Below, in pieces: positions 10,160 to 26,300 of a stretch of DNA of 64,000 nucleotides. Each line of letters starts with the position of its first letter. Position 1 is the first letter of the stretch. Location of the stretch: contig MU006095.1 of NCBI GenBank assembly GCA_010093705.1, positions 248,001-312,000 on the forward strand, given 5' to 3'. The translations under genes were made by a program, and so were the position numbers. This stretch comes from Patellaria atrata CBS 101060. Its lineage: Eukaryota. Under the pieces are notes generated by a model. It saw only the letters and a program-made list of their open reading frames with translations, ran no database searches and was not told the DNA's origin.

Positions 10160-12330
10160 TCTCTTACATTGCGAAGATTGTTGCCCAGGGAGAACATATA
10201 ATGGCCAGTTTTGATCTTTGTGGCCAATTTGCCGCTTCAAATGCCGCGTTTGCCAGGTTGATCAGCATTTAGTCACTACTTGTATGGCATTAGCTCAGGA
10301 GATTTTATGGCATTATTGAAGGTCCCACCTTCTGCGCCAACAAGAGTGCTAGCTATGGGTCTATGCTCAACTCGTCCGTTGTACGGCATTTGTGCAACTA
10401 TTCGATTATCAGATGAGGTTCCAATTGGGCCTTCAGAAACGACTCCCAAGGTAAAACCAGCTGAGGCATATGCAGGACCGGAGAGATAAACTTCTCTCCA
10501 ACGGTGTGAGAAGAAGACGGTTCCCTACAGAATTAGCCACTGCTGAAGTGAAACTCTTCCTAAACAAACGTACTCATTTGGGAGCATCACGATCCTTTTC
10601 ATTAGCACTGCCATATGGTATAATCTTGATGGCATCGGACAAAGTTTCGCTGTTCTTTGAGAAGATATTCTCGTTGAACTAGTCCCTGAAGACTGAGTTC
10701 GACGAGACCTTGATTGTATTCATCCGTTATTGTCTTCTTCCCTTCGCCCCTTTCCGTATATTAGCACCGGTAGTTGGGGTTATGTCAAGAAGCGTTTACT
10801 AGCGATAGTGAACGATGGGTCCTTCATACGGTTCTTTAGCGTATTTTGCTTTGTAGTCTTTTCTGAACTAATCGAATTTGTGATGGTAATCGTGGCACAT
10901 CGGCCAGAACGCACTCTAAGGACTATAAGCAATGACCGAAAACCGTCCAGTACCACATACTCTCGCGAGATATTCTTTCAGTGACTTTCCGCCTACTTCT
11001 ATAGGTGGGCACTACACCCATCTCTCCGCAATGCTGAATATTGTTCTTTTAGCGCTGAGGACGTTTTCAAGAATGGTAATGAACTCGTCAACCATGGTTT
11101 AATGTGTCTTATTACCGTGCGGAAAGAAGTCCGCCGGGTAAAGAATTCTCTTGGGGAAGCTTGAGACATCTTCCAGCTTCAAGGTCTGTGATGCGAGGTG
11201 ATGGAGGGAGTCGAGGCTTCGAGTAAAGAATACGATAACATCAAAAGTCCTATAAAACATATGACTATGAATTGAACACCGTAGACATTATATCAGCACT
11301 TATCTTGAGTTAGTCTGTATCCCTCTCATTGAGGTGCTGTTGAAAGTGGGCCGAAGTGAGCAAAGTCCGTTGCATGTTACTAGAGCACGGATGCTTCCTG
11401 CAGCTATTCCAGAGTGAGTTTGATATTAAAAAAATAATAAGTTGAAGGGCTTGGAAGGCTTACAGTCTCCTGGAATAAAGTAGTCAAGCCACTCATAGCC
11501 CTCAAGGGACGAAGCAGCACCACTAGAGCTGCCCAATAGACTTTTTGATACATATCCCGGCGCGGATTCGTAGGACAATGGAAGTCGATATACTGGTATG
11601 TTGGCTCACCTAAACTGGCAGATGCTGTCATCTTCGTCTTTCCTACAATAACTGCACCTTTAGAGGTCAACTTCTCAACATAGTCGGCATTAGTGGCTGC
11701 TGGTCCGTAGAGTTCGATAAAAGTTTTACTCATCATAGTACTTTGGATGCCTGCCAAGTCAAAGATATCTTTAACATCCATTCGAGCGCCTGTTAATGGG
11801 TTGTCCTCCGAGTGTTCGGAATACAGTCTACTGGGGACAGCGACATGTTTCCAGATTCCGGGTACTGACAGAGTTCAAGAGGACAAAGGTGTGAAGTTTA
11901 TAAGACGATGTATTAGAACCTTGTACTTGGGGAAGAGAACTTATGTTGGCGGGGTAAGTAGATTATCTGGTATAACTGAAATCATGAAACCATTCAGAGT
12001 ATTTTCATATAACCGCCATACTTGGTGGATGTTCGATCCGTGAAGAAAGTATGGGCCTGGGGGAAGCGTTTTGTCGGATGAGATTAGCTCAGATAACCAA
12101 ACTTGTTTGAATAACTGCGAAAACTTATGTTGCTGAACTGCTTAACCTGACGTTTGACCATCAACATTCTGAATCACGAGTCCCTCGGTAAGTTTTAGAC
12201 TGAATACATCATCGAGGGACGAGTACTCTTCCCAAAGCTGAGTAAACCCGTCAGTATCGCTGGTAGAGTGCTCCGGAGCCAGAACGGTGACCGGTTGGAT
12301 ACTTCGTTCAGAAGAAAACCCAACCACTGA
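10160..12330 (-). pseudogene. Amidase-signature family pseudogene
   Basis: VKDIFDLAG, GAVIVGKTKMT, a frameshifted GSSSGAA, AGSIRA..CNGL.SLRPT and C-terminal RVEHRPI; multiple stops and frameshifts. Ends approximate. Confidence 0.8.
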
Positions 12331-15068
12331 TCCCTAAGTGCTCTCAGTCGCAGCAAGTTTTGGGATGTCTGATAGAACTTACCACTACATATGCATGCAG
12401 AATGTAGTGTATTCCGTCGACAATCTCCGTAACAGTACCTCTCAACGCCATATTGCTCAGATTTCTGTGGGTGAGAACAGTAGGGTGTAGGTATAAAATT
12501 TTGATTCTCTCCCGGCACGACAGGACTCAGAACTTGTTCTACTGCAGCCAAGCAAATCTTCCCGTGCTCAACATTTCATAGTTCATACCCTTGTGGGGAA
12601 ATTCTACTTGTGTACTAACGGAGACACGGCAGATTTTTCAGACAAAGAAAGTACAAACGGGTGGACACAGCGTAAAATTGAGTTAACAACTAAGGCGCTG
12701 CTGCAGACGTCTTCTCAGACCCGCCCTCGTCTCAAGATGAAACTCAGAAGGAAGTACAAAGCTAGGTATTTTACCTCCCGTCACCAAGTTTGTGATCTTG
12801 AACTAATCTATGATTATTTATAAAACCGCTTTATGGCGCTTCCTATGAAGTAGCCCCCTATTGCCCCTACCCTCTTCTATTCCTAGTTTTCTAAACCTTT
12901 GTGTACATGTACTCATTTAAACCCTAAATCCATGGAGCGATCTAGTCCAACATTTAATGACTGATCCACGCCCTTCTTTGAAAGCGACTGAAGTATTGTT
13001 CCTTGATTCTATCCGTGCTGTGTGCGATGAGAATGAATTATAATAAAAGCTATGTGCGATGGCGGAAGCGAAAAGACGAAGTCGCTGTGGGATAACTCTA
13101 TAAAGTGTAATCATCAACGGCAAACTAGTCTCATGATATTGTCTGAACGAGGAAATACAAAGCCGCTCTTGAGGGCGGAGGGTAGGTTTATCTGCATGTA
13201 CATTCGAAAGGTTAGCGATTCAGACCTGTCATTGGGGTGTGCTGTCTCTACTACTCATGTTCTTTGACTGACTAACGGGTATAACTTCTCCATACCGTCA
13301 TATCTTTAAAAACGGCGATAAGATGAGTACCGATATCTCTTCTAGATACTCAACGAAAGTGTAAATCAGCCTATTCAGTTGCTTTGAAGGCACTTCGGGT
13401 GGATTCAGAAAGAAGATTTGTGGAGTTCTCTAGTGGAAAAAGCGAGATTGGCGTATACAGATCGTCGCTTGGATGTAATTGTGATATTTCCCGTATGTTT
13501 GCACCCCTAGAGCTTGGAGACGATTGCTATGCGTGATAACCTCAGCCAATGGATTGTATCAACCAATTCAGATTCCATGACAACTTGTTCCCTATAGCAT
13601 AAGCAGCGAATAGTTGAGGATTTCCAGCGATTCGATGAAAGTGGTTAGTCGCTCTTCCCTTCGTGACCAAGCTTCCGTTCTTGACCCAAGGATGAAAGAC
13701 AAGCGATAGACTTGCCTTGAGTCTCGATTGCGATTCCTCAATAGTGTCTCTTCCCATAAAAACATCTATCTTTCAACGAAATCTTTCCGAGGAGTCCATT
13801 CTACGATGTAATCCGACTGAGAATCCAAATTTCCCAGTAGTGTAATTCGCGCGTTTAACTGACGGTCAGGATCGTGGAAGGAGAATGTTGGATGTGACCG
13901 TAAATATTTCACTTACTTGACGCACCGTCTGCTTCTTCTGAAAAATAATCATATGAGCAATGAGAAGGGGTCTTGATACCGGTTTCATTTTCCCTCTGAA
14001 GGTCTGGCTGATATGCTCATTGCTGGCCACTGCGAAAGCATGAGTTTCGGACAGCTTGTACTGGACAGTGTCGCGGTTCGGGAATGACAGAGCAAAGAGA
14101 TCTCCAGGAAATCTCTCTAGGAATAAAGACGTAGGTAGTATGCTTTTGACTGTAAAGGAGGACAATATCGTATTCGGTTATCTGGCCGTTCACGAGCCAC
14201 TAGCTTCTGTAGAGAGGTCCTCGACGAGTTTTGGGATTATTGGCCTTGATCCTGCTTATGGTCTTCGAGGCCACAGTCAGTGTACGCACCTGCTTTCGAA
14301 TATCATGTTTCCGTGAACCCAGATAGATCATCCGTATCGAAGAGAGCAGATTCAACTTAGAGTTTCCTATTAACTTTCGTTAAGCTCACCCAGGTGAGGA
14401 TCCTCATGGAGCTACAATGCAGGAGTACAGAGGTTGATTACAACGAATGTTGCCCGTTTCGTACTAGAATGAAGGAAGCGGTATTCAGTTCGATGCCGAT
14501 AAACATTTTACTGCTTTTATAAGAGAAAAGGTAGATTTAGAAATTAGCTGATGGCCATGGAAGCAAGACAGAATGTAACCCAGCGGAACGTCTAAGATTA
14601 TGCGGTGACCCATCTTCAAAGGAGATTGATCCAACATTACCACTTCTGACGCGGAACTGTGCCCGTCCTTTCTTGAAAGCTACAGCTCAAGGTTGTAAGC
14701 CTTGCGACACTGTCAGTCCTTGAATTGTAGTAGATCATGCCGGTCGAAACGGAGTGTATGGCTGCCCGCTTCATCGTGGTCTATGTCTGGCTCATAGTCG
14801 AAGCAGTTGGTGTCGTTTATCCATAGATCCTAAAATGATAGGTTGACAGGACATGTGTGTATGGGACAATCATGACAGCCTAGCGTTAGTAGAGCCACTT
14901 CTCGGGCCATAGTAGTTGCTTAAAGTACCGCGAGAAAGGTGGTAAAGCACTACAAGGTGTGGAGTAAATTGTGTATGCAATGCTAAGTCGAAAATTGAAG
15001 CTGACCGATGGCATAGCATTGGCAGGGCTACCTCTTTTCTTTAGTAACGGAATCGCTCAGCAACCCAT

Positions 15069-15348
15069 TGTCACGGGTTAGACCCGATAGGTATAAGTGC
15101 CTTGGATGATCCAGCGGCTTAGCTATGCTATACTTAAATAGAACAACTTACGTTGTTCTGGCACTTTCTCTTACATTCTTTCCTTAAGTTTAAGCTCCAT
15201 GCATGATCCAGTAGCTTAGTCATGTTGTACTTTAATAGAACAGCTCACGCTGTTCTGATACTCTCTTTTACTTTCTTTCCTTAAGTTTAAGCTTCATGTA
15301 CATACAGCAATATACCTTTCAGCTCTCATCTGAGGTTGAGCCTTGACA
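15069..15348. mobile_element. Solo LTR (280 bp) with 5-bp TSD CCCAT and internal 97-bp tandem duplication
   Basis: Termini TGTCAC...TTGACA; CCCAT at 15064-15068 and 15349-15353; internal repeats start at 15106 and 15203. Confidence 0.85.
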
Positions 15349-17296
15349 CCCATGGGAAAGGTGCCGCGAACAATAGGAGGCATAGTAGATCGCGTTGAAG
15401 CTTGTGGTGTCAAAATAAGCAAAAGTGGAGTCTAGAGGCGAGTGTAGAACTATGGACCGAACCGCTGCCTGTCAAGCCCTGTGCTAGTGTTGCAATGAGT
15501 TTGGGGTTTGCTAGGAGGTGAAAGCTTGGCAGCAACGACAACAATCATGCTCGGTAGCAAAGGTAAATATAGACTGGAATTCAGCAGCCAGCGGGGGGGA
15601 AAATAAAATTCTTGCATTCATGTGGCTTTTAGAAAGAGTTCCCCAGTGAACGGTATCACGAGCAGTCCCTCTCGGGACAGCCTTGACAGCGCAGTGAGAG
15701 AGGAGCATTGCCCACCACATCAGCATAGTCTCCTCTACGACCACTGGAAAGGTAATGGGTATCGCATTCTCTGTCAGCCTGCGTCCTTCTCTTTTCTTAG
15801 ATACTGCACAACACGTCCATACCGTCCGAGCTGGTAGTAGCCTAGACAGGATGAAGAACGTAGACATCGCATAGCGACCAAGTATTAGTACAAAAATGAC
15901 GGAATTTCATTTACATACCATTCGTGTTAATCAGCGCCTTTGTGCATAACTGCTTCGTCCCGTGAATTGCAGCGTGAATTGAAGGGCAAATATGCAAGCT
16001 TGCCCACCTCTGGGGCAACATTATACCCGTCTGGTTCCGCTTACGGAGAAGAAGCACTGCTCCTGCGGCATCTTACGGTTATGCAGCGCGGTGTATGCAG
16101 GAGATTCTATTGATTGGTTTGGGTAGGATGATACTGCGGTATCTTGTTATGACTTCGAAAGGCCTCGACCTCCTAGACTTGCCCATGTACCCGGCTTGAC
16201 CCCTAAGATCTCGTGTTAAAAAGGATTCGCTTTATGGTAAATTCTATAGATAGGTTGGTAACCCATGAAGGGACCTGGGCTATAGTCGAGATACGGCTGG
16301 AAGAGAAATGTTCGTACTTAAGCATCCCCTCGCCTTACTACACTGTGCGCTATCTGGCCAGCTTGCTGGTGTTGAAGAGTTATAGCTCTGAGTGGAGCCA
16401 TCTAATCTACGTATCTGCACTACCTTGAAGTGATGACTAACCCAGTGCTGTAGGGGTCTATCAGAGTGTTGGCAGCTAGGGGAAGGCGATGGCATGACAT
16501 AGATCATAACTATGATCATAGGACTCACCGAAAGTTCTTGAAAAGGCTCCTTGTAGACTGTTACTTGCCTCGAGAGACACTCCCGTCCTTCAGCATAGAC
16601 ATTAAGTGAAGCTATGGGCTCGCAGCCCCCTATCAGAGACCCGTCAGCGAATCACCCCCTGTTGCGCGTTGGTGCAGCGGAGGGCGGTCTACCACTAGTG
16701 CGTCGAGAGGGTTGTATTCTGCCTTCGGTCGGCACACAGAAGTTTTTCTTCTCTTCGGCCACACTCACCTTTTTGATCTCTACAACCTCATCCACGTCCA
16801 CTACCCTCATCCTTTCTAACACCGCGCCATCGTTCCTGAGACTTCATTTTATCAGAGAACAATAAGACATCTTCAACTATGCTCCTCATCTACTTTTTAT
16901 TTTCTTCGTGCGTCGTTTAGGTCGGTCTTGGCATTCTGTGCGGAGATTCGGCCGGAAGTGGTAACATCTCCATCCACAACTCTCTCAACAGTAAGTCTGC
17001 GACTGCATAACTGACGTGTCGAACGTCTAAAAAGGCTGAAGTTACTCGTGAGCTCAATGCTTGCTGGTTTTTCGCCCGAATAGACTAAGTCCGAAGAGGT
17101 CAGCGTCGTGGAGGTCGCGGTGGCGTACGACCAGGTAAGTCAGTCGAACCCCATTTCTTCTTATGCACCAAGCACAATCGAAGCTAGTAATAACTTCAAC
17201 TAACCATAATCGGCATATCATGGCAAGTTCACTCATTCAAGGTGATCACCTAAAAGCAAGTGTAAGCGTCTATCTCCACTGACCCAGCCACATTAG

Positions 17297-17351
17297 TCGA
17301 TGAACGACAGGGGTAACAACTTCAACATTGATTGACACTTACTATTCTGAG
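17297..17351 (+). ncRNA. Candidate box C/D snoRNA
   Basis: Imperfect C box TCGATGA (17297) and D box CTGA (17347-17350), downstream of a GTAAGC donor; short, target not recognised. Confidence 0.3.
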
Positions 17352-18040
17352 CAGCTATGTGAGTGTCAACATTAACACCAAGTAAGTTGTTTCTCCTTTT
17401 CTCTTATCTTTTCTAACAGACGTTGTCGAAATTCACCCACCTTCGCCTTCTGTCGTGCCAGGAGACATGCACCAACCACGAGATATTCCTTTACACTCAA
17501 AGTTATTAAGACCTACCCACAACAAACTGAGGAATGATACTGACTAGCATGAGTCTTCGCAGGTAATCGCCACTAGAACCCAACTATCTTCATGCTTATA
17601 CCTTCTTCAATTGTGCTCCTCAATCACTCAACCCATTCCGTCTCCCTTGCTCTTTCACAAACCACCAACTAACCCATGGATGAACATGGGCCAGATAGTC
17701 TCGCAAGAGCATCACCGTGATTAGGATCGTCTTCGGACATCTTGTGGTCTCATCACTGAAGTCTGATCCGAGACAAATGTCGGCATCTAGAAGGATGTCA
17801 GGGCTTACAGTGACCGCTTGTCTTAAGATATAGACATGTGGTTGTATTATAAGCCTAACATACACTTCGCGACGGGTCCCAATCTTGGTAAGTTAACTGG
17901 TAAGTTAGATTCACTCCTTCACCATTCGAAACATCTGATCAACTACTCCTTTGTGATTTGATTTTGAAACAGAAGGTCACCGAGGCCTTAGGAACTACAC
18001 TCCTAAGCCGACTAGTGAAGACGTGCTCTTTCCACCGTCC

Positions 18041-18175
18041 TCTCCTGTGTCCCACGGCAAGGGAACCGCAAGGGGCCCACCGAATTCTGGGGATGACCGA
18101 GAACAAAACCCTTAATTCTTGAGAAGCACATTCATGAGATCAAAGATGTGCATCTGAACATACAAGGGGACACAC
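18041..18175 (+). ncRNA. Candidate box H/ACA snoRNA
   Basis: Hairpin (tctc..gtccc/gggat..gaga), H box ACAAAA (18103-08), hairpin ccctt..gcacat/atgtgc..aaggg, ACA at 18170-72. Confidence 0.55.
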
Positions 18176-18493
18176 TACTTCAGGGCTGTTGACTCAACAG
18201 AAACTAGCATCCTGCGTCACCACCCACCGCTTGATGTCTTATACAGACCCAAGAGAAATTGGTCAATGCTTGAGCCGATCCTTTTTGGCATGAGCCATTA
18301 GCCAATCCAATATACGTAGGCAGTGAGGCTCGTTCGCATTTGACCCTGTCAATGCAGCTATTGGATACAAGCCATTATACCGAATGGTCATATTTGGCAA
18401 CATCGTAACATTTCGAATTATTGGTCTCCCATTTCCCTCTATTCTTTCCTTTGTAAACTGGTTTATAAAGTGAAGGCTAACAGTCGATAGGGT

Positions 18494-18574
18494 GGGCGAC
18501 GAAATCCGACTCTGCACCTCCAAGTGGTGTCGCCTGGTTACTGGTCTGATTTCCCCAGACTTGCCAACACAGAG
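18494..18574 (+). ncRNA. HDV-like self-cleaving ribozyme fold (near canonical)
   Basis: P1 GGGCGAC/GUCGCCU with G1-U wobble; P2 CUCUG/CAGAG; P3 ACC/GGU; L3 UCCAAGU; P1.1 CC/GG (18536-37); P4 GUCUG/CAGAC; J4/2 GCCAA with putative catalytic C18564. Confidence 0.7.
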
Positions 18575-18772
18575 AGGTCCGAGAGTAGCAATATCGGCGT
18601 GGGCATCGTAAGACACGGAACACCTGTTCTCCCATCAGGTATATCCTCATCGAACCCTTCGCCATTACACGTAAACATTCCCCCTGCACAATCTTTACTT
18701 AGTTAACCACAAGCTCTTAGATGTCGACACACGTATTACCGTTCAATGACCGACACTCTCTTTGATACTGCC

Positions 18773-20396
18773 GGCCAGAGCGAGATTGGACTTATACTCA
18801 AGTGATGAGTTTTTCTTGTTAGGCCAAAACCAAAAGCGTGTCACTACCGTCCCATGGTCAGGAACTTATGTCTTCAATACATTTGCTTCTATTTGTGACA
18901 TGCGACATCTCCAACTCTTTACGGAATAATCGTCAATGAAACGTGGAAATACTGGCGATTTAGTCTACCTAGCACATCCTCCTTTTCAACTGCGTAATTC
19001 TTGCTTGTCTCAGGTAACCTCTTATATCAGCCGGCGATCGGCCACGGCAAGGTTGAGGCTCATATTCCAGTGATAAGTCTTCCTTGTTAGGCCAAAATCA
19101 AAAGCGAGTCACCACCAGACAGGAACTTATGTCTTCAATACATTTGCTTCCATTTGTGACTTGCGACATCTCTGTCTCTTCGTCATTGCGCTGTGGAACC
19201 TTGCTAAGTGGAACATGGGATATAAGAGCCTGATTACTGACTTTTTCTTTTTAGGTCTCTGTCAGCCACGACACGACTGGGACTCATACTTCAAGTGATG
19301 AGTCTTCCTTGTTAGGCCAAAATCAAAAGCGTGTCACTACCGTCCCAGGGTCAGGAACTTATGTCTGCCATACATTTGCGCCTATTTGTGACACGCGACA
19401 TCTTTATCTCTTAGAATATGATTATTAGCGTTTTCTTTCATGTGTTGTCAACCACAACGAGGTAGGAGCTCATACACAAAGTGATGAGCTCTCCTTGTTA
19501 GGCTAAGATCAAAAGCGAGCCAAAGTCAGGAATTTATGTCTCTCCATATGTTTGTTCCATTTCTGACTATCGCGACATGTTTTATTCGAGGGCAGTGGGG
19601 CGCAAGAGGGGGAACTCCAGCAATGCTCAACACCTCAACGTGGTGCTGGAGTCTAGTAACCTTCTGAAGGTGAAGCTAAGATTGAGCCGGCAAGGATAAG
19701 GCGGAGCTTATACTTAAAGTGATAAGTTCTCCTTCTTATGCCGAGCCCAAAAGCCAGTCAAAGTCAGGAACTTATGTCTCCCATACATCTGTTCTATTTG
19801 TGACACGCGACATTGGTAATAAGGGCCGTGGGGCGCAAGAGAAGGAACTCTAGCGATGCTCAACATCTAAACGTGGTGCTGAAGACTAGTAGTCTTCTTT
19901 TGGAGGGGAAGCTAAGATTGAGCTGGTTACAAACAAGTAAGAACCCATCCTCAAAATGATGGACTCAGCTTGTTAGGCCAAATATCAAAAGCGAGCAGAG
20001 TTATAGAGCTTATGTCTCCCGTACATTTGCCTCTTTTAATGACTTACGACATCCATTTAGTATGTTTCGGAACTGTCATCTACAGGGTACCAGCGGAGCT
20101 CAACACCTCAACGTGATGCTGGAGTCTAGTAGCTTTCTTCTGGCGGTGAAGCAAAGATTGAGCTGACCATGATAAGATAGGAGCTCAATGCCTAAAGTGG
20201 ACGATTTCTTCTTATTAGGCCTAGAAAAATAGCGTGTGGGAGTTGAGCTTTTTTCGGTAGGACTCCCGTATCGCATGGCCTGTTCGAGGACAACCATATG
20301 TTTTTCCATGCATATGGACCATTTTTGGATAGGGGCTTCTGGCTTTACAAAGCCGTGCGAGCGGCTCCATCGTAAGGACGAAACACGCCGACATCC
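18773..20396 (+). ncRNA. Tandem array of seven H/ACA-like RNA units (18773-18910, 19040-19171, 19264-19403, 19450-19580, 19685-19815, 19921-20054, 20165-20396)
   Basis: Repeated hairpin - ANANNA - hairpin - cgACAnnn layout with compensatory changes; shared cores cttgttaggcc, caaaagcg, ggaacttatgtc, cgacat. The H box is degenerate in unit 5. Confidence 0.7.
19615..20163 (+). repeat. Three degenerate HDV-like folds (19615-19687, 19848-19923, 20088-20163) alternating with H/ACA-like units
   Basis: P2 GCUCAA/UUGAGC, P3 A(C/U)C/G(G/A)U, L3 U(C/A)AACGU, P1 CUCCAGC/GCUGGAG (best copy), J4/2 GC(U/A)AA; G1 and P1.1 GG are missing. Confidence 0.55.
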
Positions 20397-23300
20397 TTTG
20401 TTAGTCATGAGACGGTCATCCATGGAATCCAGAGGTATCGTATCAGACAACATATGAGCCGACGAGCGTAAACTAGAGAAATTTCCCTCGTTTAATCATG
20501 ATAGAAAGAGAGTGATAAGCCGGGAGTACGTTCTCAAAAGATTTGTCCTTTTCAGGACTCGGAATACCCAAACTTTGCAGATCGTTATCCTGGAACCGGG
20601 GTTCCCAGCCGCTCTTTCCTCACTGTTGTTCCACCAGAGCTGTTCAAGCCGAATGCGATCAAAGTCTTGATGCTAACTTTGATTTTGTGTATTAGGGTTT
20701 CTGATATGATGTATCAATCGGACCGAAATCGATGAGAGATTCCACCGCGGATTGACGATCTAGTAAGACAAAGGTAATGATTTAATGATACGCTTGCTGA
20801 CGGCTGATAGACTTGACCATTTCTGTCTTGGTGTAACCGGACCTGGGTTGACAGCTTGATTTAGATAGGTACAATGTTGGTGTGCTCTTTGTAGTGGACT
20901 GAGACTTGAACTGTTGGTGGATTACAATTGCGGTTTGGGGTTATTGGTCGGCTTATTGTGTCGTACTCGGGGCTCGATGGCTTATTTGTATGTAGTGTAA
21001 TGACGCAGCGAAATAATTGAAGTTGACTGGGTTCTGAGGGGCATGCCAGCCACCTTCTTGTCCACGCCGATTGAAGACCTCTTTAGAGTTTGGATGCCTA
21101 AAGTCACGCCGTCTTTATGTTGACATCTTTAACCTCATAAGCCTTATAACATGCTGATGGTACTGATCCCACATGGCCTCGCCAAGATGAAGATGTTTAG
21201 CTAGGAAAAGCCTTGCATTGAACAGAGAAAAATAGCGGAGAACTTTTCCCTATCTGGACTAATGAAGATTTAGAGTGCGAGCGAGTGGAGGCTTAGTGTG
21301 CTATTGGGCGACGGTCTTCATCCAGTTGATGGCCTTGAAATGTCGACTGTAAGTCATCCTTGTCCTTTTCTCTTAATGTTTCAGCTGGATCATATTTATA
21401 GTGACTATTGACCGATTTTCAGAAATGCGAGGTCTAATTCTTTAATATATCAGCCAGAAAAGAGCGTAAACGTGGTTGTGGATATCATGCGCTGCTTAAG
21501 AGCGTAGTTCCCGTGAGAGTAGGAGTTTCACAGGCGTGAATTTTGTTGTGAGGAGCCGAGCGGAGATGAGATGATCTGCCGGAAAGAATATCTATTGACA
21601 ATTTCCAACATAGGATATCAATCCCGGACGGCCCTAAGATAAGATGTCTCGGTAGAATGTACTTTCAACCTCCGGTCCGCAAGAGCTATCCTAGACTAAA
21701 ATGCAAGGTGTCTGGGTTAGACTCATTACGGATGGTGGATATTATTGATATCCATCACACCGCAGGACAACGTCCGAGTTCGCCAACTTCGGTTGAAGGA
21801 AGCGTAGACAAGAATTCTTTCCGAGTTCGATGAATCACCCATCGTGAGAAGCCTGGTGGAGAGAGACCCTCTCTTAATCTCAGCGGCCTCATTCGAATTT
21901 GAAGAGAAATAAAACTCAATCGTATAAAAGAAGGGCTCGTAATGTCGAGGGTTTCAGGGCCAAAAATGATTTTGTAAATCCATAGGGAAAGGAATACAGG
22001 GGAGTGAATCCGGCCTATCTTGCGGACCAAAAGGTTTTTGGAATCTCATTGTCAACCACAATGCAATGTAAAGGCAGCTTGGACTTTTGGTACGGTCGGT
22101 TGCTTAAGTAGTGTCCCCGTCTATGATAATTGTTAAATCGTAATGAACTGAGGGATGAGGTCGAAATAGCCAGTCGAGTTAAGAATGATAGCATGGATCT
22201 AAGCGAAGTGTGGCTGTCAGCTTTCGTCCCACTATGGCCTAGCTGATGCTAAGGTAAAGACCGAACACCAATCATCGCACTACTCGAAACGAACCGTGAT
22301 GCAGGAGATCAACCCATGAATGCTCGAAAGCAAAGAAAGGACTGTTACGGGTTCGGTTTGGTCGCCTTGAGCGGCATACATTGGCTGAGATACGTGCCAC
22401 TCCGTCAAGGTTCCTCTGTCTATAGAATGTAAATATTGTTGTGTGGGGCATCATCACCTTCACAACGAATCGCCTGCTTTGAGTCCTCTCATACCAGGAA
22501 ATACGTGTGTGATGTTGGATGAAGCATTTACTGGATATTCGCCGCGAAAGGCGTCCCAAACCGTATCGAAAACCAGTCCATTTCTGGTAGAATCTTCATG
22601 CAGCGACAGCAAGGACAGCTAAATGGATAATTAGAATGTTACTTATACCCTGTTATTGTAGTGAGAGACTCAAAAAATGGTGAAGGAGAGAAGAAAAGTA
22701 AGGGTGTGGTTAGTACGATCGGAAGCATGAATTTGCAAGCACAAGTAGTGCTTCCCTCAACGTGTCGTGCACACGAGAATGATTATAATTACCCCCGGAG
22801 CCTCATCATTATGGAGTAATCCTTGTTTAACGACCCCAGTGTAGAATGATTCTAGCATTGCGTTGTGCGCGGATCAAGTGGCGAAGGGTGGTTCTGATGG
22901 AAGACCGGGCCGAACTTGGGAGCAACAACCAAGCCAAGAAGATATAAAGGCTAGCGCGCACCTCTCGACAAGTACAACACGCTTATTGGGACGTAGATCC
23001 ATTAGATCATGAGGTAACAGTTTTGATTCTACTCATCACGATATGAACCCGCTCGAATATCGACTACAGCAAGACCTCTGGATCTATTGATGCACATCTC
23101 AGTGCACGCAAGCCGGAAAAGCGTATTTAATCCGCTAGTATCGCGACCTCTAACTCACTATTGTATTTTATTCATTCCTAAAAGAACCCGTAGAAGTAGT
23201 GATTGTGGAAATTGGCCTGATCGGCGCGTGTCCCTCGCTAATGTAGTTCCCATCCGCATTGTGAACGAACAACTCGCTACCGTATACCGTGAGATAGAGT

Positions 23301-26300
23301 CTACTGTAGCTGTAGATGCCGGAAGTGTCCGAAGCAAAGTCGGACCACTTCTTAGAAGTGAGCAGCAATGAAGCTGCGAGTGCAATATACCGGTCTTCCT
23401 TTTGATTGACTATGAGTTAGTATATCTGCATGGTTAGTTCACTCGCCGAGAATATGCATCTCGTCCAAATTTTGCTTAAAAACCACAAGGAACGCCCATA
23501 TCTATACACAGTGAAGCCGCTTTCTAGGCTCTATTGTATATATCGGTAATATAGGTAGATTCGTACAGGTAGCCAGCTTAGTGCGGTTTCAGTGGAGAGC
23601 CTCAGCGGATCGCGTTAGGCGGCATAGAGATTGTAGAGAGCTCTTCTTAACCAGTAAAGACTGGCGACTCCAAGAGATTGGCCCTGCTGGTAAGATGGTC
23701 CAATAAGCAGTGCAGAGTAAAGATGTAATTTGACCTAAGCAGAATGCAAGAGGTGTACGAACATACCTGATATTACCATAAATTCCTTTTGAATTGATTT
23801 TGAGAAATTAGGGACGAGTCATTGCAATATAAAGAGATTTCTGAAATACCGCATATTGCATAGGGTTTTCGTAGGCCCTCGGAGGAGACCCGTTTGCTGA
23901 GGAAGTCGCACAATGCCCCTCGGCCCGAAATCTCTCTTTCCCCCAACCATCCAAAACTCGGACAACTTACTACTAATCAAAATACTTTCTTGATCAACGC
24001 TTCGCCTATTCATAATCATAACTCCAAGAAATCTCTTTTGCTTCGCTCGAACGCTCAACTTCTTCAATTTCTTCTTCCCGTTGTCAGTATCACACGTCAT
24101 CAATCTTTTTTCTCGCTGCTCTCTGATATGCCTCCCGCCGCCCGTCAACAGCCGGAACGTGGAGATCTGCATCATGCTTCCCCTCAAGGTCATAATTATG
24201 ATCTTAATCTTCAATCTCGTCCCATATCTCTTCGCTCGCCTTAGGGAGCTCCTTGCAACAGCGCCACAGCAGTGAGCGCAGCGATACCCGGCCCAACAGC
24301 GGCATTATTCGCTCGCTGCTCGTCTCTTTCTCCTTTTCTGGTCCTTCTGCACCTCCTGTGCGTGACTGTCCTGGTAAGCTCTTGCTTTGCTCGCTCCGTT
24401 TTGTTTTCACATGCGTTTATAACTATTCTTCTAGCCGCACCGTATGTATCATCACCTTGAGGCTCACTACCAAGCTCTTTTCATCCCGGCTCTTGGATCT
24501 CCTGGCAACTAGCCCGCAAGCGAACCGTATGTGGGTAATCTTGAATATGATGGGTTATACTGAGAGCTGACGGCTATACAAAGAAATCCTATCGAAACCC
24601 TAGACAATAGCACAATGGGAGTGAGGCAATAATCACACCCGGCAACTGTTCCGTCTGAACAGTCCTAGGGTATCTAGGAGTGTCTAGAAATGCGTACACG
24701 TAGTCAAACACCTTAATAAATACCTTCTGAGCTTTGGGAAATCCAAATGACTTACTTTTGCACGGCCGTGATACATTGTAGACTGCTCAGGGGATGATTT
24801 GCTCACCTTTCCATATCCATACCCCATTTGTAAACTGCTTTCTTGCATTTCTAGTAATGAATTAAGTAACCTACCTTTATCGTAATCCATAATTTGCCCT
24901 TGATAGATGATTTTGAGACTAGACGGTACGCCAGAAGGGCCAGATTTTCGCGCGCATCCCTTGCGGGGTTCTTCCCTTGTTGATATTTGTCCTACATTTT
25001 TCAACTCACATTAGCGAACCAACAACCTCATAACAACTCCAGGCTCCTTTTATCATCTAAAGCCATCATTTTCCCTTTAATTATACCAGAGTACTTCAGA
25101 AATGCAGTTCTCTGATTCCTCTCTCTATCCACGACTAGATCAGCCGTGATGCTGCTATCCTAGCTTTTCCGGTGAACCAACACGCACCGGCATTTGACAT
25201 GAGCCACTACTGTGAGGATCTGTCCGTACCTATTGGTGGACAGTACATATAATGAAAGTTGGTATATTCCGAAGATCAGAGCAATTGTCGCAGTTATCTA
25301 TGCTCCAGCTATGGCGTTCCCGGCATAGGTACCAATATACAACATCAATCGACTTAAGCCACTACTAGACAATTCACATCAGTGACCCGGATCTGCCAGT
25401 GGGAAGTTCCACCATCCTGTCTTCGGCACAGGGCTCTCTCTTAGCGACACTAGTGGTTTGACACTGATTGGTAATCACACAGCAACTCTTCCGACGAGTA
25501 CGTGATGGATGCAACTCCGAGAGACACCGAGTCCGAGTCGGCAGACCGGATCCTATTCAATTACCTTCTCTGAGAGCACTTCTGCGAAAAAAAAAACAGG
25601 TAGTCTGTATAGCAAATCATCACAGATAGATTTGCGTTGTAACTACTTCACAAAGAATTGAGGGTTTCCCTCCTGATTCCCATGTTGCGAACACCTTAGC
25701 ATGGGATGGACCGAGAAGTGAAAGCTGGCCAAAGGAATAGCGAACCTTTCGGCGAGAGAAAGCTGAACGAGGGTTGCTCGTGAGCCCTAAGTTATCTTGC
25801 CAAGTGGAAATCGACATGGTTCACGATGATGAAAATTTGGTTGAACTGAGGAAGAACGACATACGGTTACGGAGCGGGTATGGTTCTCACGTTTCGAACA
25901 CCAAGGATATGATTTTCCTGGTTTGTTCCACATGCACCCAAAAGTCAAAGCGGTAGGAAAGACAAGTGAGCTTTGCGACAAGGGAAGGCCCAACAAGGGT
26001 CGCTCGCTCTCAGTCATCCTCGTAAGGTGCTACGGGATGGACGCAAAAGTCAAAGCCGTACGGAGGACCGGTGAATCCTCCAAGGTGGTACATCGAAGCA
26101 TTGTAATGGGCAAGGCCCAATCGACCTGAGCTGAAGAGGAAACGTAGGAAAGATACAATTTGGTTCAATCCAGGCGTAGAACCGTTGCTCCATGCATCTC
26201 CGAGTAGCCCCAAAAGTCGGTCCGTGATGATTAAAAGAGCTGGAAACAAAGACGTTGAAGGAAGATGGACGGTCCGAGAGCCAAAGGGGGATACTTGGAC

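Follow-up and report, generated by a model that had tools for sequence, protein, structure and literature searches.

Here we present an array of seven related units with the layout of box H/ACA RNAs, accompanied by predicted self-cleaving hepatitis delta virus (HDV)-type ribozymes, in a 64,000-nt stretch of the Patellaria atrata CBS 101060 genome (GenBank assembly GCA_010093705.1, contig MU006095.1, positions 248,001 to 312,000), hereafter the window. An earlier note on this DNA had described six tandem units at 18773-20054; reading of the interval 18300-20600 together with a repeat search bore these out and added a seventh, divergent copy (Table 1). Unit boundaries were taken from the base of hairpin 1 to position ACA+3. 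A covariance model built from units 1 to 6 (u1-u6) and run on the window found nothing beyond the seven copies. It matched the 5' part of unit 7 with 31.1 bits (E 1.8e-4); the hairpin 2 of that unit has grown to ~170 nt, with a GCGUGU/ACACGC basal stem and a CGACAU at 20389-20394. The HDV-type ribozymes, which lie in and before the array, were absent from the earlier note and change what the locus is.

Table 1. Units of the array and HDV-type ribozymes (R0-R3), in order of position; coordinates count from the first base of the window
Feature	Positions	Strand	Description
R0, candidate canonical HDV-like ribozyme	18494-18577	+	predicted cleavage between 18493 and 18494; Rfam drz-agam-1
Unit 1	18773-18910	+	hinge AAACCA, two hairpins, CGACAU; 136.1 bits to u1-u6 covariance model
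Unit 2	19040-19171	+	hinge AAAUCA; 140.6 bits to u1-u6 covariance model
Unit 3	19264-19403	+	hinge AAAUCA; 136.5 bits to u1-u6 covariance model
Unit 4	19450-19580	+	hinge AGAUCA; hairpin 2 loop short on 5' side; 128.9 bits to u1-u6 covariance model
R1, intact fungal variant HDV ribozyme	19615-19687	+	predicted cleavage between 19614 and 19615; Rfam HDV-F-prausnitzii at 19615-19689, 18.3 bits, E 3.1
Unit 5	19689-19815	+	hinge AGCCCA, not ANANNA; 133.7 bits to u1-u6 covariance model
R2, damaged copy	19848-19923	+	C-A mismatch in P1, changed base before AGUA
Unit 6	19925-20054	+	hinge AUAUCA; most divergent among u1-u6; 115.2 bits to u1-u6 covariance model
R3, damaged copy	20088-20163	+	A-A mismatch in P1, C-A mismatch in P3, GCAAAGA for GCUAAGA
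Unit 7, divergent	~20166-20396	+	degenerate hairpin 1, hinge AGAAAA; covariance model matches 20162-20288

All 15 pairs among u1-u6 are alike (identity 0.69-0.88, z 10-47 against shuffles), and their MAFFT alignment has a mean column identity of 75%. The alignment does not vary at CAAAAGC (hinge), UUAUGUCU (hairpin 2), UGAC or the terminal CGACAU, and the most conserved stretch of the unit is CAGGAACUUAUGUCU. The ending that the earlier note had given to every unit, CGACAT, is found in six of six and also in unit 7; the basal stems it quoted for hairpin 2 (GCGTGTCAC/GTGACACGC in u3, GCGAGTCAC/GTGACTTGC in u2) and its three versions of the hairpin 1 upper stem are likewise present. Its further statement, that the first spacers are unrelated while the units are conserved, also holds: spacers 1/2, 2/3 and 3/4 resemble neither one another nor the later spacers (z at most 2.2). 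Spacers 4/5, 5/6 and 6/7 are mutually related (z 15-30), and each holds a copy of a ribozyme. Conservation runs from the base of hairpin 1 to one base past the ACA, an extent that would correspond to what an H/ACA particle protects. A gapped pattern of the three most conserved blocks found relatives of the unit in no metagenome contig, and the unit covariance model had no match on five metagenome loci (L001-L005) that are described below for their ribozymes. A degenerate unit sought between R0 and unit 1 was not found (z at most 0.9).

Each of u1-u6 folds alone, by RNAfold, as two hairpins, in the order hairpin, A-rich hinge, hairpin, CGACAU. The RNAalifold consensus of the six-row alignment comprises 37 pairs, in 10 of which both sides have changed, and 88.7% of its 222 cells are paired; with partners slid by 1-3 columns, the paired fraction falls to 37.5-45.5% and both-side changes to 0-3 pairs. 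None of 500 shuffles matched the observed percentage paired, the pairs or cells with both-side changes or the covariation score, and 143 of the 500 reached the observed value for further standard pair types; the rows being paralogues of one locus, these figures describe maintained pairing and are not a formal test, and the shuffles overstate significance. Covariation is concentrated in hairpin 1, which holds eight of the ten both-side pairs, as against two in hairpin 2, one per helix; in the upper stem of hairpin 1, five of nine pairs are compensatory and 94% of cells are paired. Among the cells of consensus pairs, G-U combinations outnumber A-C ones by 23 to 11, and the + strand is therefore the better RNA strand.

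The structural alignment that the earlier note had proposed as a check thus gives pairing and both-side changes in excess of the slid controls, and its inference that RNA structure is under selection is supported, for a + strand RNA, by the kept units amid three unalignable spacers, by the compensatory and G-U-preserving changes and by the limits of conservation at the base of hairpin 1 and one base past the ACA. The same data bear on the view that the array is a decaying tandem duplication without function, its similarity due to recent copying or gene conversion and its paired changes to chance. Such a view would draw on the paralogous rows, with the overstated significance of the shuffles, on the equal conservation of paired and unpaired columns (0.72 and 0.74) and on the pattern search of metagenome contigs, which found no unit relative outside this genome. 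It sits poorly, however, with three spacers devoid of any similarity between units that are still 80-88% identical, with slid-partner controls that preserve relatedness and yet fall far below the ten both-side pairs, and with the invariant boxes, and we consider it scarcely probable. A coding reading was rejected as well: stops occur in every + strand frame across the units, and the differences in unit length are not multiples of three. Also rejected was a box C/D small nucleolar RNA (snoRNA), prompted by the GUGAUGA in hairpin 1; the UGAUGA sits in the apical stem of that hairpin and reads UGAUAA in u2 and u5, and CUGA is found near the 3' end in u4 only.

The hairpin-hinge-hairpin-tail layout of H/ACA RNAs is present in the units. 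The ANANNA that the earlier note had read in every hinge stands in u1, u2, u3, u4 and u6, that is, in five of the six aligned hinges, and in unit 7, and fails in u5; the invariant CAAAAGC is not the H box. The ACA lies one base after hairpin 2 in all seven units, and the base of the hairpin 2 upper stem is 14-16 nt from it, as counted on the alignment. In the passages used here of PMC5824354, "The fungal snoRNAome", a survey that takes in ~50 families of fungal box H/ACA snoRNAs, the same features recur: the hairpin-hinge-hairpin-tail order, an ANANNA-type hinge, an ACA directly past hairpin 2, the 14-16 nt loop-to-ACA distance and a size of ~130 nt; orphan members are known there too. Those passages make no mention of seven tandem paralogues of one family, and the word "tandem" is absent from the paper. 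Upstream of the array, ~90 nt before R0, the interval 18305-18405 has two hairpins, an AUACAA hinge and an ACA one base past hairpin 2; it was dropped as an H/ACA-like candidate, its second hairpin being just 28 nt long.

Several features weigh against counting the units as H/ACA RNAs. In u1, u2, u4, u5 and u6, hairpin 1 forms a stem of ~24 bp with hardly a break and with no pocket; in these units the pocket site is closed by a 7-bp helix on CCUUGUU, a conserved 3' strand opposite a 5' strand that varies mostly by A-U to G-U changes. As read from the alignment, a GUCA/UGAC pairing that would close the loop of hairpin 2 can form in five of six units, u4-u6 among them, and u6 keeps this pairing through changes on both sides. 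In u1 and u3 the 5' side of that loop forms a small hairpin of its own, and in the minimum-energy fold of u4 the loop is replaced by a 10-bp AGUCAGGAAU/AUUUCUGACU stem. The u5 hinge, AGCCCA, is without ANANNA. Rfam 15 gave no matches at gathering scores on the window, and a permissive Rfam scan of 18000-21000 found no snoRNA family at E values up to 10.

No target in ribosomal RNA (rRNA) was found in a partial set of ribosomal DNA (rDNA) from 62 contigs. These are contaminant contigs from prokaryote assemblies, fetched by the ITS4 primer and holding the rDNA of other eukaryotes; the set spans 18S and 5.8S and, at the start of 25S, roughly 2.2 kb, with 25S from ~2.3 to 3.0 kb, the small nuclear RNAs and the host's own rRNA lying outside it. 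The target pattern was taken from the hairpin 2 loop as AAAU-U-N-UGAC (AAAU, two free bases, UGAC). In its strict form it had one match, on the rRNA-sense strand of contig L042, which by our reading of the contig's orientation falls in the intergenic spacer before 18S and not in mature rRNA, and a wobble version gave weak, unconvincing matches only. For the complement of AGGAACUUA there was a single match, within a variable part of the 25S of one eukaryote, and it is treated as noise, as is the L042 match. A target search with conserved elements of the unit, such as the earlier note had proposed, therefore yields no convincing target on this partial rDNA. As a separate observation, exact matches to the ITS4 primer occur in at least 62 contigs of prokaryote genome assemblies (L006-L067), indicating contamination by eukaryotic rDNA.

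Compared with fungal box H/ACA snoRNAs, then, the units are without an open guide pocket in hairpin 1, the pocket of hairpin 2 is doubtful, and neither a target on the partial rDNA nor homology to an Rfam family was found. The H/ACA reading of the earlier note is partly supported: the box layout and loop-to-ACA spacing stand, and set against them are the closed hairpin 1, the closable loop of hairpin 2, the u5 hinge and the absence of an Rfam match and of a target on the rDNA searched. Its caveat that the pockets looked atypical, and that the RNAs might be orphan or non-pseudouridylating, agrees with the closed hairpin 1 and the lack of a convincing target on that rDNA. The units resemble H/ACA RNAs in layout, and class membership is a resemblance only. 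They might instead belong to another class of structured non-coding RNA (ncRNA) that mimics this layout, for example rod-like small-RNA precursors or protein-binding RNAs. The nearly continuous hairpin 1 and the 10-bp stem of u4 speak for this, as does the placement of CAGGAACUUAUGUCU in a stem-loop and not in a guide position, together with the empty Rfam and target searches. A mimic would still have to reproduce an invariant ACA one base past hairpin 2, ANANNA in five of six hinges, the 14-16 nt spacing and a conserved extent exactly as an H/ACA particle would protect, and we think such a class rather improbable.

The permissive Rfam scan returned four weak matches, two of them of HDV type. 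R1, in spacer 4/5, comprises the helices P1 (CUCCAGC/GCUGGAG), P2 (GCUCAA/UUGAGC) and P3 (ACC/GGU), an extra C at 19631, AGUA at 19655-19658 opposite GAA at 19672-19674, and GCUAAGA preceding P2's 3' strand; by analogy with C75 of HDV, its J4/2 cytosine would be C19676. Further copies, R2 and R3, occupy spacers 5/6 and 6/7. In the parts of PMC5640933 on which we draw (Li and Breaker, BMC Genomics 2017), 230 variant HDV ribozymes are reported from 26 fungal species, and three features define the variant: its cleavage site has a C-G pair, loop E takes the place of part of P4, and P2 and P3 are separated by one additional base, most often C. Self-cleavage in vitro at the base of P1 is given there for members from P. 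chrysogenum and A. niger only, the genera in the portion of Table S1 concerned are all Eurotiomycetes (e.g. Aspergillus, Penicillium, Ajellomyces, Arthroderma), and the class is said to have "widely variable gene associations", with no biological role given.

Using a pattern derived from R1, we were able to identify six further ribozymes on the five metagenome loci L001-L005, which together with R1-R3 form a nine-row alignment. All nine copies have the extra C between P2 and P3 (alignment column 24), and in all nine the 5' side of P4 carries AGUA and its 3' side GAA, a combination that we take to be the loop E signature. The cleavage-site pair is C-G in eight of nine copies (C19615-G19651 in R1, C-G in R2, U-G in R3). 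On these grounds R1 shows the three defining features of the fungal variant (PMC5640933), and what R1-R3 have in common with the ribozymes of that report is AGUA/GAA in P4, the extra C and the helices of the double pseudoknot, with the C-G pair in R1 and R2; the difference lies in the tandem array at this locus, where ribozymes and H/ACA-like units take turns.

The nested double pseudoknot P1-P4 has 20 pairs in the nine-row alignment, with 95.5% of 177 cells paired and both-side changes in 11 pairs, as against 30.5-44.9% paired and 1-3 such pairs in slid controls; part of the P2 signal of R1-R3 stems from a one-column alignment offset, and the pairs hold either way. Unpaired cells in P1 and P3 all come from R2 and R3, and those in P2 and P4 mostly from metagenomic rows. 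Furthermore, in contigs of the same organism's DNA (one sample, runs X1 and X2) the 19604-19687 element recurs at other sites, between unrelated flanks that are absent from the window. In these dispersed copies similarity starts at 19604, 19611, 19625 or 19627 and stops exactly at 19687, the last base of P2; flanks standing in for P1's 5' strand or for the P4 tip can still pair, e.g. CAGUCA...UGAUUG for the R1 P4 tip. Because of the covariation in nine rows and of dispersed copies whose flanks can still pair, R1-R3 are members of a real, dispersed and structurally constrained ribozyme family, and through it of a class with cleavage in vitro. Same-strand pairs of variant HDV ribozymes 1.25-1.35 kb apart were also observed, on L003 (1132-1202 and 2485-2553) and on another contig of the window's genome; such pairs would excise a ~1.3-kb RNA with ligatable ends.

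R0, on the same strand and 198 nt upstream of unit 1, is of the canonical kind. Direct reading of 18494-18574 gives a P1 of GGGCGAC/GUCGCCU with a G-U first pair, a P1.1 of GG after P1 with CC of L3 (UCCAAGU), P2 CUCUG/CAGAG, P3 ACC/GGU, P4 GGUCUG/CAGACU and J4/2 CCAACA. The canonical HDV-like elements are all present, including the C in J4/2; R0 too has an extra C before P3, and loop E is absent. It is the best Rfam match in 18000-21000 (22.7 bits, E 0.19 on 3 kb and 4.1 on 64 kb), and its position on the same strand close upstream of unit 1 makes it credible. Two figures count against it: its score lies under the Rfam gathering score of 37, and the HDV descriptor of which it is the only match in the window gives 0.6 matches per window on Markov surrogates. 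That descriptor was tuned after R0 had been seen, which makes it weak support, a first descriptor having missed R0 and matched six other places (five distinct sites). We treat R0 as a candidate ribozyme.

The ribozymes of the later array stand in a fixed relation to the units. Predicted cleavage sites fall 37, 35 and 36 nt past the ACA of units 4, 5 and 6, and the hairpin 1 base of the following unit comes 1 nt (R1, R2) or ~2 nt (R3) after the ribozyme 3' end (19687, 19923 and 20163), so that a late spacer is a ~35-nt trailer plus a ribozyme fused to the next unit. The period is 233-240 nt, with one ribozyme per monomer, and R1-R3 therefore derive from one duplication. These facts limit what can be claimed for ribozyme-driven processing. 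Having descended from one 238-nt duplication, R1-R3 represent one association and not three, and R2 and R3 have defects in helices and core. No ribozyme lies between units 1-4, so cleavage is not essential for unit release. The ribozyme adjoins the following unit and does not lie directly past the preceding ACA, which would fit a definition of 5' ends, or simple co-duplication, better than 3' release. To these is added that the arrays found beside ribozymes in metagenomes are not H/ACA-like.

Those arrays, on metagenomic fungal contigs, consist of repeated small-hairpin units. On L002 (oriented), 93-nt small-hairpin repeats in 3.2 copies occupy 1998-2482 upstream of the ribozyme, with a further unit ending at the cleavage site; the related locus L005 has a 112-nt repeat in two copies directly upstream of its ribozyme (2266-2482); L003 has ~110-nt repeats at 782-1131, directly upstream of its first ribozyme; and on L001 a row of hairpins with UGAAGAA loops and a period of 22 nt extends over 1140-1276 up to the cleavage site. 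The arrays end directly at the cleavage site, and several of their units carry repeated AGACAU motifs. No such array accompanies the L004 ribozyme or the second one of L003. In this sample of six ribozymes on five contigs, the pattern hints that ribozymes of this class may tend to neighbour small-RNA repeats. In the window and on L001-L005, none of the ribozymes is followed by a long reading frame, and a retrotransposon context was not found.

A serious rival to ribozyme-driven processing, although we judge it unlikely, is that a real H/ACA-like cluster is matured by ordinary nucleases and that the ribozymes are passengers, one having landed and been copied with the 238-nt duplication, with R0 unrelated or due to chance. 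Units 1-4 without ribozymes, the single origin of R1-R3 in the related late spacers, the decay of R2 and R3 and the statistical weakness of R0 are all as this would have it, and so are the dispersal of the family in this genome and its "widely variable gene associations" in the passages of PMC5640933 used here. Against it, R1 keeps every family helix and core base, and two different HDV-type elements, on the same strand and within 1.2 kb of each other, flank the array. A hairpin-unit array directly upstream of three of the six metagenomic ribozymes (L002, the first copy of L003, and L005, with L002 and L005 related) also hints at a recurrent link.

The regular period and the single ribozyme of each monomer, joined as it is to the following unit, suggest a further possibility for units 4-7, namely a self-cleaving satellite-like repeat whose 238-nt monomer is excised and perhaps circularised, as in ribozyme-bearing satellite transcripts and retrozymes. 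A tRNA-type ligase can join ends of the chemistry that HDV-type cleavage leaves. The cleavage products described in the relevant part of PMC5640933 would accordingly be joinable, and same-strand ribozyme pairs 1.25-1.35 kb apart exist elsewhere. There are only three monomers, though, two of them with damaged ribozymes; units 1-3 are without a ribozyme, and no reverse-transcriptase or other mobile-element frames lie near any copy in the window or on L001-L005. We consider this origin very unlikely.

We favour the reading, though at a little under even confidence, that the locus is a polycistronic array of orphan H/ACA-like RNAs cut by its own HDV-type ribozymes. In this filamentous ascomycete, seven same-strand paralogous genes would encode an RNA of ~130 nt with H/ACA box layout. 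They would be transcribed, most likely as one precursor, because the spacers (44-118 nt) are too short for separate promoters. Bound by H/ACA proteins, the unit RNAs would probably form orphan H/ACA-type particles that do not perform the usual guiding of pseudouridylation, since neither hairpin offers a clean open pocket. Cleavage by R0, 279 nt before unit 1, would remove a capped 5' leader, and R1 would cut between units, 35-37 nt past the preceding ACA, with R2 and R3 cutting less well or not at all. If the ribozymes do cleave in this organism, each cut would leave the upstream piece with a trailer ending in a 2',3'-cyclic phosphate, and the piece made of ribozyme and unit with a 5'-OH, and maturation would be completed by exonucleases trimming to the protein-protected ends. 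In the processing of internal transcribed spacer 2 by Las1, ends of the same chemistry arise and are finished by a kinase and exonucleases, and such trimming is therefore plausible. Alternatively, the compact ribozyme may stay in place as the structured 5' end of an RNA of ~205 nt.

The alternative ending can be carried further, to a view we hold improbable, in which tandem arrays of small structured RNAs have a processing module of their own in the fungal variant HDV ribozyme, an RNA-only stand-in for RNase III when polycistronic small RNAs mature, and the mature product at this locus is a chimera of ribozyme and H/ACA-like RNA. The cleaved ribozyme would then be kept as a cap-less, exonuclease-resistant 5' end, and the H/ACA-like domain would serve as the 3' stabilising module, a part that the H/ACA domain plays in vertebrate telomerase RNA. 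The hairpin repeats that recur directly upstream of the ribozyme on unrelated metagenomic fungal loci would follow the same principle with other small RNAs.

The array of orphan H/ACA-like RNAs that we favour has partial counterparts among known systems. The snoRNA clusters of Ascomycota are cut by RNase III (Rnt1), a protein endonuclease. Polycistronic clusters of this kind (snR72-78 type), as treated in the relevant passages of PMC5824354, are alike in having same-strand snoRNA-like units, short spacers and an implied single precursor. The clusters discussed there are of C/D families, each holding different ones, whereas the units here are paralogous, with RNA doing part of the cutting on the reading we favour. 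Theta ribozymes, which are minimal ribozymes of HDV-like type adjacent to tRNAs of phages, offer another likeness in the part of PMC10879173 that we cite, as HDV-type ribozymes beside small structured RNA genes for which end processing is proposed. Unlike those phage, tRNA-adjacent elements, the ribozymes here are of the fungal variant type, in a eukaryote, and abut the 5' side of the next unit and not the 3' end of the previous one.

As for its setting, the window is eukaryotic and fungal, as judged from its long reading frames, which include an AA9 lytic polysaccharide monooxygenase (E 1.5e-55), a PRP21-like splicing factor, a class II tRNA synthetase and a kelch protein. The window is otherwise gene-dense, but in ~14 kb, at ~12000-26000, stop-free frames are all of at most 161 codons (14-25 kb having been examined at that resolution), and the array therefore lies in the middle of a gene-poor stretch. 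A run of Tandem Repeats Finder did not report the array, because the unrelated spacers break its period. Two other repeats were observed in the window. At 15088-15281 a 97-nt unit is present in two tandem copies with 78% identity; it contains AUGAUCC and a GAACAAC/GUUGUUC hairpin, with CUGAU in the second copy, and the pair may be two small RNA genes. At 25706-26074 a 38-nt motif occurs three times (66-79% identity), at spacings of 226 and 105 nt.

A full-text literature search found no paper in which the HDV variants of fungi are connected with snoRNA-like genes or with small-RNA repeats, the alignments of the 230 examples of PMC5640933 lying outside that comparison. In a 2019 review on the biology of ribozymes, fungi come up once, in connection with Penelope-like elements, and snoRNAs never. 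The locus is best seen as a putative array of orphan H/ACA-like RNAs punctuated by ribozymes, in which known parts are newly arranged. Should the ribozymes be passengers and the units lineage-specific orphans, it would add modestly to the catalogues of fungal ncRNAs. Apart from the ribozymes, a seven-copy, pocket-less H/ACA-like family would add to the small set of non-guide H/ACA RNAs. For the fungal HDV variants, which cleave in vitro and are given no role in the cited parts of the paper describing them (PMC5640933), the locus provides a concrete and testable setting; and should these RNAs be shaped by cleavage, the locus would be an instance, in a eukaryote, of an ncRNA cluster matured by ribozymes.

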